Shown piece by piece: positions 16,117 through 19,282 of a stretch of 64,000 nt of DNA. Position numbers and translations under genes: made by a program. Origin of the DNA: a virus (taxonomy: Duplodnaviria > Heunggongvirae > Uroviricota > Caudoviricetes); IMG/VR virus record IMGVR_UViG_3300029288_000059, positions 225,237 to 289,236 of that record. One strand, 5' to 3'. The notes under the pieces were generated by a model, which worked only from the letters and a program-made list of their open reading frames with translations, did not search any database and was not told the DNA's origin. Position 1 is the stretch's first letter; every line of letters begins with the position of its first letter.

Positions 16117-17916
16117 TTATCTATTATAACCGTAACTGTTTCCAATAATGAATACGGGTGTATAGTCTTCATCGTCCTCGATTGTTTCCTTGAATTGGAT
16201 ATCAATAGTTTCATCCATCTTCATTAATACACCCAACATTCGAACACATAACAAGGAAGCGGATACTGCATCATCATGTGTACCTGTCTTACCACTATAA
16301 CTAGAGCCATTAACAATATATAAACTTAATTGGCGAGTTAGTTCTTTTGAACTAATAATCAATTTTTGTTTTTCCACCAAACTCTTTAATTGAGCACAGG
16401 CTTCTAACTTAGTTTGATTAGTTGTACAGTAACCACGTCTAAATCTTTTATTTTTCTTTTTAGGCTCAGACATAAATACACCAGGGAAGTTATCTTCTCC
16501 AATTTGTGATATGACAACTAAGGCTGCTTCACCCAATGTATTATTTTCAACTGTCCAATATAATTCCGACGAATCTGTTCGCGTCTTTATCGAATCATGA
16601 ATTTTTAATAGGATTTGTCTTAAGGTTTTAATTTGTGTTGGTATATCTGCATGATTGTTCAACCATTCGGCAACTTGTTTCATACCCGGAACTTCAAATA
16701 CTTGAATACAAGAAAAATCCTCACCCTGTCCCAATGACGGGTCTAATGCTACTAAATACGTCATACCTTGTTTAGGTTCAGAATACCACCTTACTTCGCC
16801 TTGTTTACATATTGGGGATATTTTATCCACGTTTGCAATAATTTGTTTCATACACATATTATCAATTAATGATTTATCTAATCCGACAAATTCACAATTA
16901 TATTCACGTTCAAACTTGGCATCACTACCCATCTTCGCACGTTCTGCAAGTTCCCACTTTTCATCACGGTCAGGATGTACTCTCCATGTCGCTTTGTAAA
17001 ATTTAAACCCATTAATTCCAGGTCCATTATTAGGTATTTCATTACCACTACCATCAATGAAAGCCTGTGATTCTCTACATATCTTAGCAAATAAATCATA
17101 TTCTGTATTAGGGGTGGATGTAATAATCATCTTCCCTCGTGTCGTTGCCAATGTAGGAGTAATTGACATATAGAATTCTTCTTGTAATTGGATAGATTTA
17201 AGAAATGCGAATTCATCACAATAAACGATTGCAGGTGATAAACCACGTCCTGCATCACTAGTAGTAGCACGTGATATTAAGACTGAACCAGTATCGAACC
17301 TCATAGAACTCTTGTTATTCTCAATTAAACCCGCCTTTATAAAATCAGGCATATTTTCATAACAATACTTAATACGTTGCATAATCTCTAATGCTTGATT
17401 TTGCTTATTGGCAACAATTAGTATGTCTTTATCCTTATGAAACATTGCATACCATAATAGATATAAACTGGTTACGGTTGTATTATGACTCAATATACCA
17501 TTGGTATAGTATAAGTGATTATTATGATTGTTTTCATCCAATGTATTCACTTCAACACAATACATATGAACCTTAATATGTAAGGGACTACAACTAACAA
17601 CTTCTTCTATATCACCATCAGTAACAATTAAATCACCCATACATAGAGTATCAACATAAACTTGATGATATGTATTATTAATAACGATATGCTTATCTGC
17701 ACATAGTAATGTATGGTTGGTTGTTTTAAGTTCCCATAAATCATAAGGGACTGTCCTAACTACTTTTGATACTATGCCAAAATCAGATTGAAAATGAACA
17801 TCTTTTACATGGGTGAACTTTTTAACATCATTCGTGATTGTATATGTTTTACGATGGTCTTCATCTAAAATATACAATAGACCTTTAATTAAAGTTCGTA
17901 TATATTGTTTAAACAT
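16117..17916 (-). CDS. Terminase large subunit, C-terminal piece. Roughly 153 aa of the C-terminal intein fragment (IntC, carrying intein blocks B, F and G and ending ...GILSHN) are fused to the C-extein starting [19 protein letters not shown].
   Basis: Walker B and nuclease motifs (IVYCDEFAF) are present. The extein resumes exactly at the Walker A Thr (T4 gp17 has [24 protein letters not shown]). Intein motifs found are block B ([16 protein letters not shown]), ...LCMGDLIV, and blocks F/G (KVHMYCVEV...[13 protein letters not shown]). Confidence 0.8.
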   Translation of the reverse strand: [599 protein letters not shown]

Positions 17917-17965
17917 TCAACTCAATCCTATTAACTACTTTAATATATTTACAAATTGGGATATT

Positions 17966-18385
17966 ATGTACAGAGCACTAGATCCATATCATGTCAATAT
18001 ACGACAATCATCGGGACTTTCAGATGTTTCAGATGGTATTATACGACGGGGTGAAGTTAGTCTCTTCCATTGTGGGTTAACCAAATTACCCATCTTTAAA
18101 TATATAAGTGGTAATCTTGATATTAATAGCAATCTATTAACCAACCTTAACGGCTGTCCTATTTACGTTGGTGGTAATTTATATTGTAGTGATAATCTAT
18201 TATCTAATTTAGATGGTGGGCCACTCTTTGTTTATGGTAATTACTTCTGTGGGCACAATCAATTAATAAGTTGGGATGGTGGGCCCCAGTACGTGAAAGG
18301 TAAATTAATATGTAATAATAATCGTTCCTGGATACTTCACAACCCCACCAATATTTTTATGGGTAAAGGATGTTCAATTGGTTAG
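17966..18385 (+). CDS. LRR-like repeat family protein (MYRALDPYHV...). It lies inside the gap of the fractured terminase gene.
   Basis: It contains 22-aa repeats (LTNLNGCPIYVGGNLYCSDNLLSNLDGGP...). The start was set at the family-type N-terminus at 17966. The longer track ORF, beginning at 17813, overlaps the terminase gene. Confidence 0.55.
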   Translation: MYRALDPYHVNIRQSSGLSDVSDGIIRRGEVSLFHCGLTKLPIFKYISGNLDINSNLLTNLNGCPIYVGGNLYCSDNLLSNLDGGPLFVYGNYFCGHNQLISWDGGPQYVKGKLICNNNRSWILHNPTNIFMGKGCSIG

Positions 18386-18758
18386 AAATTTAGAACCATA
18401 TATTGAACCATATATTGAACCAACTCCTGAATGGAACACAGACGCAATTCATCTGTTTAATGGATTTACTTATGTAATAAAAAGAGGAGGTTATTGTCTT
18501 GGATGGATGAATTTGGGTGAACTTCCTTCGTCTTTCAAATATGTAAGTAAGACATTTAATTGTAGCAATAATCAACTAACAACGTTAAAGGGATGTCCTA
18601 TTTATGTAGGTGGTAATTTCTGGTGTGAACGTAATCAATTAACCAGTTTAAATAATTGTCCTGTTTATATTGGTAACAATTTTATATGTCGAGACAATAC
18701 ATATAAACTCATCCCACCTAAAGAAGTTACTATAATCGGGGAGTTATATAATGATTAG
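18378..18758 (+). CDS. LRR-like repeat family protein (MVRNLEPYIEPYIEP...).
   Basis: It has the family N-terminus and repeats such as NNQLTTLKGCPIYVGGNFWCERNQLTSLNNCPVYIGNNF. An 8-nt overlap links it to the upstream copy. Confidence 0.55.
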   Translation: MVRNLEPYIEPYIEPTPEWNTDAIHLFNGFTYVIKRGGYCLGWMNLGELPSSFKYVSKTFNCSNNQLTTLKGCPIYVGGNFWCERNQLTSLNNCPVYIGNNFICRDNTYKLIPPKEVTIIGELYND

Positions 18759-18823
18759 AAATTTAGAACCATATATTATTAATCATATCACTTGTATAAT
18801 GGGTCTATATCGATAATTTAATC
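18758..18823 (+). pseudogene. Truncated 5' fragment of an LRR-family gene (MIRNLEPYII...), running into the 108-bp tandem repeat.
   Basis: ATGATTAGAAATTTAGAACCATATATT matches the family N-terminus, then diverges and reaches a stop after 21 codons. Confidence 0.4.
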
Positions 18824-18993
18824 AACAAACGTTCCAAGTAATCTACTACTTTTTGTTTTAAATTTAAGTGAAAGACGTTAGATATTATTAATCATATCAC
18901 TTGTATAATGGGTCTATATCGATAATTTAATCAACAAACGTTCCAAGTAATCTACTACTTTTTGTTTTAAATTTAAGTGAAAGACGTTAGATA
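18778..18993. repeat. Two-copy direct tandem repeat with a 108-bp unit.
   Basis: The unit attaatcatatcacttgtataatgggtctatatcgataatttaatcaacaaacgttccaagtaatctactactttttgttttaaatttaagtgaaagacgttagatatt occurs twice back to back. Copy 2 encodes the last 26 codons and stop of the terminase N-piece ORF. Each unit contains a TGTATAAT extended -10-like element. Confidence 0.85.
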
Positions 18994-19282
18994 TTGTATC
19001 ATACTTCTTATTAATGGTGATTATTGTATTACCAATTACACATTTTCCCAACTGGCGAGCACACATTATGCAACTGTTTTGATTCTTATGTATTACTTCG
19101 ATTAAGTCATGTACATAGTCATAAACTTGATATTTTGTCTTGCCAGCTTTATTAACATAACAATAATTCTTCATAAAATATTCGGGGTCGTTTTTACATC
19201 TTTTAAACTCAATCAATTCCTCTTGAGACATAGGAGTAGACGAGTATGGTGGTTTAACCTTAGAAACTATTGGTTCATCCAT
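18914..19282 (-). CDS. Terminase large subunit, N-terminal piece. An 80-aa N-extein ending ...CARQLGK (Walker A) is fused to a short N-terminal intein fragment (IntN) starting CVIGNTIITINKKYDTISNVFHLNL.
   Basis: The extein matches T4 gp17 (PEYFMKNYCYV, then RQLGK). Residue Cys+1 followed by V-I-G-N-T-I-I forms intein block A. The remainder of the ORF is encoded by the 108-bp repeat. Confidence 0.75.
   Translation of the reverse strand: MDEPIVSKVKPPYSSTPMSQEELIEFKRCKNDPEYFMKNYCYVNKAGKTKYQVYDYVHDLIEVIHKNQNSCIMCARQLGKCVIGNTIITINKKYDTISNVFHLNLKQKVVDYLERLLIKLSI

Follow-up and report, generated by a model that had tools for sequence, protein, structure and literature searches.

A phage large terminase gene in two pieces, with a putative atypically split intein in its Walker A motif

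The stretch of DNA analyzed here (hereafter the window; 64,000 nucleotides, positions 225,237 to 289,236 of the Caudoviricetes record IMGVR_UViG_3300029288_000059 in IMG/VR) is a 64-kb part of a ~272-kb phage genome, and it encodes the large terminase subunit, TerL, as two separate minus-strand open reading frames (ORFs). The break falls within Walker A (GK|T) and is very likely due to an intein, which is in turn divided near its own N-terminus, so that protein trans-splicing would be needed to rebuild the P-loop. This core reading was put forward in an initial annotation made from the sequence alone, and it now draws support from profile searches, a curated family model, a predicted fold and colinearity with an uninterrupted terminase. 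If it is right, an essential phage enzyme would exist only after two separate proteins meet and splice, and genome packaging would hinge on a ligation between proteins, a step that might limit the rate or be regulated. Observations made here cover sequence anatomy, homology, predicted fold, conservation and colinearity, and all coordinates are in window numbering.

The TerL N piece is the ORF at 18914..19282 (122 aa) and the TerL C piece the ORF at 16117..17916 (599 aa). As the initial annotation had described, the former carries a TerL N-terminus that runs into intein block A and then stops, and the latter opens with intein blocks before resuming at the Walker A threonine. The N-extein (19043..19282, 80 aa) closes on the first part of Walker A, ...CARQLGK, matches PHROG TerL families (E 1e-12), and corresponds in alignment to residues 12-88 of the TerL of Salmonella phage Munch, which is uninterrupted. 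It is followed by the N-terminal intein fragment (IntN; 18917..19042), whose 42 aa, CVIGNTIITINKKYDTISNVFHLNLKQKVVDYLERLLIKLSI, consist of CVIGNTIITINKKYDTISNVFHLNL and KQKVVDYLERLLIKLSI and end at a stop codon at 18914..18916. The C-terminal intein fragment (IntC; 17482..17916) has blocks B, F and G inside it and closes on ...NGILSHN; its length is 145 aa, which corrects the ~150 aa first estimated. For IntN, the original estimate of 16-25 aa was too short, since the HINT part of ~25 aa is extended by an extra helix of 17 aa. The C-extein (16117..17481, 454 aa plus stop) begins at the Walker A Thr, which is Thr+1 of the intein (17479..17481), and runs through the nuclease domain with Walker B intact (IVYCDEFAF, 17203..17229).

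Both pieces belong to a T4-type (gp17 family) terminase, having an N-terminal ATPase with Walker A and Walker B motifs together with a C-terminal RNase H-like nuclease, and Walker A is complete only in the spliced form. PHROG TerL family 36964 matches the N piece over profile positions 15-110 (E 6e-12), in an alignment that extends to residue 99, and residues 131-584 of the C piece over profile positions 418-877 (E 4e-114). Pfam Terminase_6N matches the C piece from residue 146 (E 4.5e-10), and Terminase_6C does so weakly (0.023). In-silico removal of the 187 intein residues yields a 534-aa TerL with a continuous GKT P-loop, which aligns end-to-end with Munch TerL at 44% identity (E 5e-157) and without a gap at the junction. 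The C piece has no P-loop or Walker A of its own; the possibility, raised in the initial annotation, that an alternative start might supply a complete one was rejected, as no such start exists. A megablast search of the region against phage genomes returned no match.

Each ORF has a ribosome-binding site. An AAGGTGA ribosome-binding site lies upstream of the N piece, whose ATG overlaps the stop codon of an upstream 84-aa virion-protein gene (19275-19529, PHROG 11854) in ATGGATGA (window 19275-19290). This overlap suggests that translation of the N piece is coupled to that of the virion-protein gene. For the C piece, which starts at an ATG of its own (17916), an AGGA ribosome-binding site lies ~9 nt upstream.

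The assignment of the intervening residues to an intein rests on a family profile, an NCBIfam model and the fold, because the Pfam intein models and a search of the PDB with the window IntC alone gave no match. A profile built from seven fused IntN and IntC pairs and searched against solved structures matched solved inteins, with VidaL best (E 3e-7, blocks B to G covered), followed by gp41-1, Spl DnaX and the Cat-TerL consensus (CatC, E 0.025). The NCBIfam model intein_Cterm (TIGR01443) scored 16.4 bits on residues 119-146, against a curated cut-off of 15.6. In an AlphaFold2 model, residues 34-137 of the C fragment form a confident beta-rich domain (predicted local distance difference test score, pLDDT, 82-94), and the HINT part of IntN is modeled as two short strands and a helix. 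Foldseek comparison of the AlphaFold model with the PDB returned nearly exclusively inteins and HINT domains, with VidaL first (E 1.7e-4). The family profile, TIGR01443 and the fold all support the intein call.

The catalytic positions can be placed within these fragments. The HINT part of IntN (18968..19042, 25 aa, CVIGNTIITINKKYDTISNVFHLNL) takes in Cys1 together with the strand of block A and the first helix (alpha-1/N2), and its position 1 is Cys81 of the N piece, directly after GK. The HINT core of IntC (17482..17850) contains block B (CADKH), block F (HMYCVEV) and block G (NGILSHN), in which Ala73 is B:7, His76 is B:10 (17689..17691), Cys120 is F:4 (17557..17559) and Asn145 is the terminal residue (17482..17484). 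Conservation was tabulated over 49 non-redundant related loci holding both pieces. The B:10 His is kept in all 49, and it is this residue, His76 in CADKH, rather than the His in TTNH named in the initial annotation, that is the block B histidine. Position 1 is Cys, Ser or Thr, and the terminal His-Asn and a Thr or Ser at +1 are present across the 49 loci, a conservation that weighs less because the terminal motif belonged to the search pattern.

Several points count against an intein that must splice to make TerL. The Pfam Hint and intein models match neither piece at E <= 0.1, and the window IntC alone finds no solved structure at E < 1 (phmmer against the PDB). In addition, two usually conserved catalytic-site residues are changed, B:7 from Thr to Ala and F:4 from Asp to Cys. 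The first of these changes is general, as B:7 is Ala rather than the usual Thr in 49 of 49 loci, and the active intein VidaL has Ala at the aligned position. Splicing activity, association of the fragments and the mature TerL are also steps that we infer from characterized relatives.

Given those relatives, the following route to a functional terminase can be proposed. Each TerL piece would be translated from its own start codon, and the two intein fragments would then associate into one HINT domain, possibly assisted by the extra helices that flank the break. Class 1 chemistry would follow, with an acyl shift at Cys1, transfer to Thr+1 and cyclization of Asn145. Excision of the intein would join Lys80 to Thr146 of the C piece, giving the 534-aa TerL with an intact P-loop.

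A two-piece terminase of this kind is not peculiar to the window. Three assemblies encode an identical C piece (the window, the 272-kb contig k141_2513218 of ENA ERZ27247363 and one more), and because of this identity the genome is that of a jumbo phage and the locus can be called reproducible. Among annotated relatives, Agrobacterium phage Atu_ph07 (NC_042013) stands closest, a cultured phage of 490 kb in which gp110 (123 aa) and gp109 (602 aa) reproduce the two-piece TerL including the intein parts, with 45.6% identity that takes in the intein head. Like the window, Atu_ph07 has the GK| break, the tail and head segments on either side of it, Cys at F:4 and Thr+1; unlike the window, its pieces lie 11 nt apart with nothing between them, and its position 1 is Ser. 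Both of its coding sequences are annotated as 'terminase large subunit', and no intein or split terminase is mentioned in the paper on its genome. With Agrobacterium tumefaciens C58 as host, Atu_ph07 offers a cultured system for studying terminase trans-splicing in its natural setting.

Relatives are numerous beyond cultured phages as well. A six-sequence profile of the N piece retrieved 184 protein clusters, many of them from contigs of 100-570 kb. Among the best 120 clusters, ~101 stop in an intein stub directly after the Walker A GK, and ~100 have the pattern C/S-x-x-x-x-T-x-I at that point. A scan of viral contigs gave 440 matches to the C fragment. Because the same pair recurs in Atu_ph07, in 184 clusters and in 440 viral-contig matches, chance is excluded as its origin.

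These relatives also bear on another reading, in which the locus would be a pseudogene in decay or an artefact of assembly, with a functional contiguous TerL elsewhere in the genome. The gap between the pieces shows signs of recent rearrangement (a 109-nt duplication, a truncated repeat-gene remnant and antisense genes, all described below), and the window covers only 64 kb of the ~272-kb genome, so that a second TerL could lie elsewhere, which is a further point against a gene that works only through splicing. Yet both ORFs are intact and have ribosome-binding sites, their intein and extein residues are conserved, and no second TerL was found in the 64-kb window. Moreover, the identical C piece comes from three independent assemblies, and the split is common to the viable Atu_ph07 and hundreds of contigs. 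We therefore reject a pseudogene or artefact, which is highly improbable given that Atu_ph07 and independent assemblies share the locus.

The position of the break within the intein is unusual. It falls after helix alpha-1 and before block B, which is the atypical S2 position and not the canonical site of endonuclease insertion, and each fragment has an ORF to itself, a stop codon ending the first and a new start codon opening the second. Each fragment is extended at the break. The tail of IntN (18917..18967, minus strand, 17 aa, KQKVVDYLERLLIKLSI) is a predicted helix that is conserved in the window's clade, and the head of IntC (17851..17916, minus strand, ~22 aa) is a predicted amphipathic helix (pLDDT 70-77) closing on a near-invariant LW/Y.LD.DHR motif. 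Tail and head are found in the window's clade (~48 N-piece clusters, 12 non-redundant loci) and are absent from relatives with C fragments of 113-125 aa. Their conservation scores (0.39 for the tail and 0.46 for the head) lie within the range of the intein core (0.35-0.65, with the IntN core at 0.35).

Do these two helices dock on each other, and so help the short N fragment find its partner? We propose that they do, at about even odds. Across loci, the two termini are correlated in their hydrophobicity (rho 0.66, p 2.5e-7; Fisher p 1.6e-6, uncorrected for shared ancestry), and both segments are helical in both AlphaFold models. The first model, in which the tail was fused directly to the head, gave one artefactual long helix; the second, a circular permutation, gave separate helices. 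The head is amphipathic, with a hydrophobic moment reached by 0.9% of shuffles. Against docking, the amphipathic moment of the tail is not significant, being reached by 19% of shuffles, and the statistics on co-occurrence of tail and head ignore shared ancestry. Helix-like segments on both sides of the break occur in other sequence types as well, namely the class II sequences described next, L088/L093 and L067.

The class II N pieces (C....T..KPxGLKKxILKxLDRxxYD) break before helix alpha-1, and an alpha-1-like segment, 'TISALELF', is found in their C fragment instead. Members include P0062, P0072, P0074, P0076, P0077, P0080, P0084, P0090, P0093, P0095 and P0096, and the loci L049, L051, L084, L092 and L011. 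The helix at their end is similar to the head (LIKGLLWxLDxDHR) that opens the C fragment in the window's clade. The break position may have moved relative to a shared helical module.

The tail also sets the length of the N fragment. IntN is 42 aa here and 41-52 aa in the clade, the excess being the 17-aa tail. Natural atypically split inteins have N fragments of 15-37 aa in all cases known as of 2026 (PMC13014065), and the window fragment lies outside that stated range.

Comparison with characterized split inteins places the window intein in relation to two known groups. The initial annotation had taken the split site to be that of AceL-TerL. AceL-TerL, GOS-TerL and the consensus Cat-TerL are active in trans-splicing (Thiel 2014; Bachmann & Mootz 2015; PDB 6dsl), and the window intein shares with AceL-TerL and GOS-TerL a split at S2 after helix alpha-1 and a short N fragment paired with a long C fragment holding blocks B, F and G. 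To this extent the comparison stands, as the position in the fold is the same, but the window intein does not appear to be the same intein or an allele of it. AceL-, GOS- and Cat-TerL are reported to have Cys+1, and their N fragments measure 25, 37 and 30 aa and their C fragments 104-115 aa (AceL 25/104, GOS 37/115), whereas the window intein has Thr+1 in Walker A, fragments of 42/145 aa and the extra tail and head. Cat-TerL (CatC) is also only weakly related to the window family profile (E 0.025), and it gives nothing against the window IntC alone.

A better counterpart of AceL-TerL is found in the many relatives whose TerL is encoded in three pieces (P0001-P0008; L003, L006, L009). These carry atypically split inteins at both Walker A (GK|T) and Walker B (LLY|CDE), the second reading ...SLLY|CLAGETxVTVR...* in one ORF and ...GIITKN|CDELAF in a later one. 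The pieces lie at 4323-4718 / 4783-5595 / 9115-10527 in L003 and at 3654-4025 / 6001-6822 / 7299-8714 in L009, and up to 3.5 kb of unrelated genes separate the pieces in such relatives. CatC is the best solved match of the Walker B intein (...KN|CDELAF; E 1.3e-5). Because the +1 residue and the fragment lengths differ, and because CatC fits the Walker B intein best, identity of the window intein with AceL-TerL was rejected: the window intein is probably not allelic to AceL/GOS-TerL and would belong to a VidaL-like lineage at Walker A, with AceL/GOS-TerL likely corresponding to the Walker B site. In L006, an ORF with a TnpB/IS605-OrfB-like C-terminus (6912-7430, minus strand; Zn-ribbon CxxC...CxxC, ...DINAAINI) stands directly after the Walker B intein stub of the middle TerL piece.

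VidaL (PDB 6vgv) is the closest solved relative by both profile and fold. Like the window intein, it is naturally and atypically split, comes from a phage-like metagenome and has a C-A-x-x-H block B. It differs in its S1 split, which follows strand beta-2 and leaves an N fragment of 16 aa (PMC13014065), in having Asp at F:4, in its host protein and in lacking a tail and head.

The Cys at F:4 is a mark of the window's clade. It is found in 10 of 12 clade loci, against Asp in 37 of 37 loci outside the clade, and Ser or Thr at position 1 is likewise limited to the clade (~13 of 48 clusters, compared with 0 of ~53). This distribution would fit a reading in which the intein is active but uses Cys120 as a branch nucleophile, in a class 3-like or hybrid mechanism, instead of or besides Cys1. 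Nearly all class 3 inteins have Thr at +1, as the window intein does, and such inteins are typical of phage P-loop ATPases including TerL; their occurrence in phage terminase P-loops has been noted (Tori et al. 2010). Indeed, a canonical class 3 intein occupies this very site (ARQMGK|...HN|TTVAAAF) in the TerL of the cultured, Rak2-like Escherichia phage UE-S1 (ON568341; L097 3477-6134).

The window sequence nevertheless departs from class 3 in several respects. It retains Cys1, and at the three positions of the W-C-T triplet it has Val at B:12, Cys at F:4 and Ser at G:5, so that only the Cys fits; the signature is incomplete because B:12 is not Trp and G:5 is not Thr. The Ser at G:5 is shared with relatives that have Asp at F:4. 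The UE-S1 intein, by contrast, is a contiguous 347 aa within an 885-aa TerL and has Ala1, the full W-C-T triplet and an endonuclease of the LAGLIDADG type. In the PDB it matches class 3 DnaB inteins best, and it is related to MchDnaB-1 and to the M. smegmatis DnaB class 3 inteins, a lineage different from that of the window intein, which is related to VidaL. On balance, we consider a nucleophilic role for Cys120 rather unlikely, and class 1 chemistry at Cys1 remains the reading we favor. The UE-S1 coding sequence is annotated only as 'large terminase protein'.

A Thr at intein position 1 occurs in two clade members, the N piece of L019 (TFTSNTIIRYNN...) and P0037 (TLHFNCNIT...). Thr1 was stated to be unseen in natural inteins up to 2009 (Tori et al. 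2010).

The same substitutions, Asp to Cys at F:4 and Thr to Ala at B:7, could instead mean that the intein no longer splices and that its fragments serve as a non-covalent dimerization module, TerL working as two chains that the reassembled HINT domain and the helices keep together. The drift of position 1 among Cys, Ser and Thr in the clade would fit such a loss of chemistry, and the conserved extra helices could be the affinity module themselves. An intein-less fractured SbcD-like gene with extra residues at its break has in fact been described (Dassa et al. 2009, PMC2677866). Left unexcised, however, the intein would put 187 residues between the Lys and the Thr of the GKT P-loop, and every splicing residue is kept across the 49 loci, which is hard to explain without selection for the chemistry. 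Furthermore, the related atypically split inteins VidaL, AceL-TerL and GOS-TerL splice, VidaL doing so with Ala at the B:7 equivalent. A non-splicing, two-chain terminase is therefore improbable, and splicing in trans is the reading followed here.

It is tempting to speculate that the window's clade represents an undescribed split-intein subfamily, in which the flanking helices form a docking zipper that gives affinity and partner specificity, and in which the F:4 Cys permits Ser or Thr at position 1, possibly through a class 3-like branched intermediate. We offer this combined proposal tentatively, as it is more doubtful than docking of the helices considered by itself. Partner specificity matters in relatives with a three-piece TerL and two different atypically split inteins. 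If the proposal is true, the window intein would be the first natural example of a 'zippered' split intein, and also the first case of class 3-like chemistry in one that is atypically split.

Broken terminase genes themselves have been known since 2009. A gp17-type terminase from Lake Gatun in the Global Ocean Sampling (GOS) data was described as broken into two same-strand genes by an intein split at an 'unusual point', with a long C part of 122 aa holding all N-terminal motifs but N1 (Dassa et al. 2009, NAR 37:2560, PMC2677866). The same account presents a family of Vsr-like free-standing endonucleases as typical of fractured loci, and endonuclease-less derivatives are also described (PMC2677866). 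The window locus is a 'fractured gene' in the sense of that study, with both pieces in one locus in their original order and orientation, though the endonuclease gene expected between them is missing. It differs from the terminase described there in having a gap with two antisense repeat-protein genes, and a C fragment of 145 aa with a helical head. The initial annotation overstated the significance of the locus, as a terminase broken at such an unusual point had already appeared in print in 2009 and many phages share the arrangement. We found no account of this locus type in literature linking Atu_ph07, jumbo phages or terminase to split inteins. In short, a broken terminase gene is a common state in large uncultured phages, and it is the window's subfamily with its extra features that we did not find described.

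The endonucleases of the 2009 study have a clear counterpart among the relatives. In the 49 loci, the pieces lie on the same strand in 47, and the gaps range from an overlap to 3.2 kb. Where the gap is at least 0.9 kb, ~22 of 26 loci have it filled by one same-strand Vsr-like ORF of 316-433 aa. Vsr-like ORFs were recorded in the gaps of L011, L016, L017, L019, L020, L022, L024, L025, L032, L036, L047 and L049, and also of L051, L052, L057, L067, L070, L075, L084, L087, L088, L092 and L093. They form a single family with Zn-finger-like N-termini, an ERQxTFSLEKCIEKYGEE motif and a Vsr-like C-terminus (...IEFxGDYWHxNP...VLxIWE...), and they match Vsr, DUF559 and MTES_1575 weakly. The family fits the description of the Vsr-like free-standing homing endonucleases in Dassa et al. 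(2009).

No homing-endonuclease gene was found in the gap of the window (17917..18913), which contains only two plus-strand genes, antisense to TerL, for leucine-rich repeat (LRR)-like proteins. Gene A (17966..18385, 139 aa) begins MYRALDPY..., and gene B (18378..18758, 126 aa) has a TTG start and is called as a gene in the independent assemblies L098 and L099. Gene B is followed by a 26-nt remnant of the 5' end of another LRR-like copy (18752..18777). In the close relative L016, a 91%-identical N piece is followed by a Vsr-like ORF (477-1496), after which come three LRR-like genes in antisense and a gene for an HNH endonuclease. Mobile and expanding genes evidently use the break as a landing pad, and the window lineage has probably lost its free-standing Vsr-like endonuclease, with repeat-protein genes taking its place.

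The gap also bears on whether the two pieces might be joined at the RNA level, by a group I or group II intron, by RNA trans-splicing or by ribosomal bypassing. Self-splicing introns with endonuclease ORFs do occur in phage genes, also in large phages. A scan of 15800..19800 with Rfam at permissive settings, however, found no intron family and no Rfam match in the gap, and an RNA intron was rejected on this result. The gap encodes opposite-strand genes, the protein-level intein motifs at the ORF ends account for the break exactly, and the Atu_ph07 gap is only 11 nt long, with a stop and a new start. A join at the RNA level is thus barely conceivable, and a join between proteins accounts for the locus better.

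Part of the gap is variable between assemblies. The initial annotation gave its length as ~1 kb, which holds for the 997 nt of the window, but the gap measures 888 nt in the independent assembly L098, and it is not empty. A perfect 109-nt tandem duplication (copy 1 at 18882..18990, copy 2 at 18773..18881) repeats the last 25 codons and stop of the N piece together with 32 nt downstream; copy 2 has no start codon and is non-coding. The duplication is missing from the otherwise ~100% identical 272-kb assembly L098, and assembly L099 ends inside the unit. Because of its absence from L098, we read it as a strain polymorphism or an assembly difference, and the coding sequence is unaffected. An exact search for the duplication junction in the viral collection returned nothing, and neither did a control sequence.

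Taken with its relatives, the locus provides a series of graded forms that bears on the gene-breaking model of Dassa et al. (2009): adjacent pieces, pieces separated by an endonuclease gene, three-piece genes and pieces on opposite strands. To these the window adds a stage at which the break no longer holds the endonuclease and unrelated genes have entered it. A few relatives have the N piece opposite in strand to the next piece (L012/L013, 3726-4097 on the minus strand and 6001-6738 on the plus strand, 2.3 kb away in L012; L094), and therefore the pieces have begun to uncouple genomically. In the metagenome proteins P0013 and P0014, the same long C-intein fragment type (|S/T) is found on non-terminase P-loop hosts, a DnaB-like helicase fragment and an AAA-type ATPase; several P-loop proteins are therefore hosts to this split-intein family.

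For protein labeling and semisynthesis, atypically split inteins whose N fragment is short are valued tools, and a subfamily with built-in helices, Thr+1 and sometimes Ser1 could supply orthogonal or higher-affinity parts. The features that set the subfamily apart, namely the helices at the break, the F:4 Cys, the Walker A site with Thr+1 and the loss of the endonuclease, may merit follow-up, for which Atu_ph07 is the easiest system.

The two repeat-protein genes in the break belong to a family that is expanded across the window. This family of small LRR-like proteins (~90-160 aa, with 'GCPxYVGGxLxCxxNQLTSL' repeats) has at least 11 copies in the 64 kb, and it has a weak Pfam LRR_4 match and no informative PHROG match. 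The other copies, at 20718-21194, 24037-24507, 27851-28129, 28128-28532, 28726-29193, 29414-29713, 37461-37730, 38027-38329 and 39704-40000, are all on the minus strand, and the two in the TerL gap are the only ones on the plus strand. Finally, a gene for a T4 endonuclease V-type pyrimidine-dimer DNA glycosylase (20090-20548, minus strand; Pfam Pyr_excise E 9e-12, PHROG 1183 E 8e-35) lies 0.8 kb upstream of the terminase locus.

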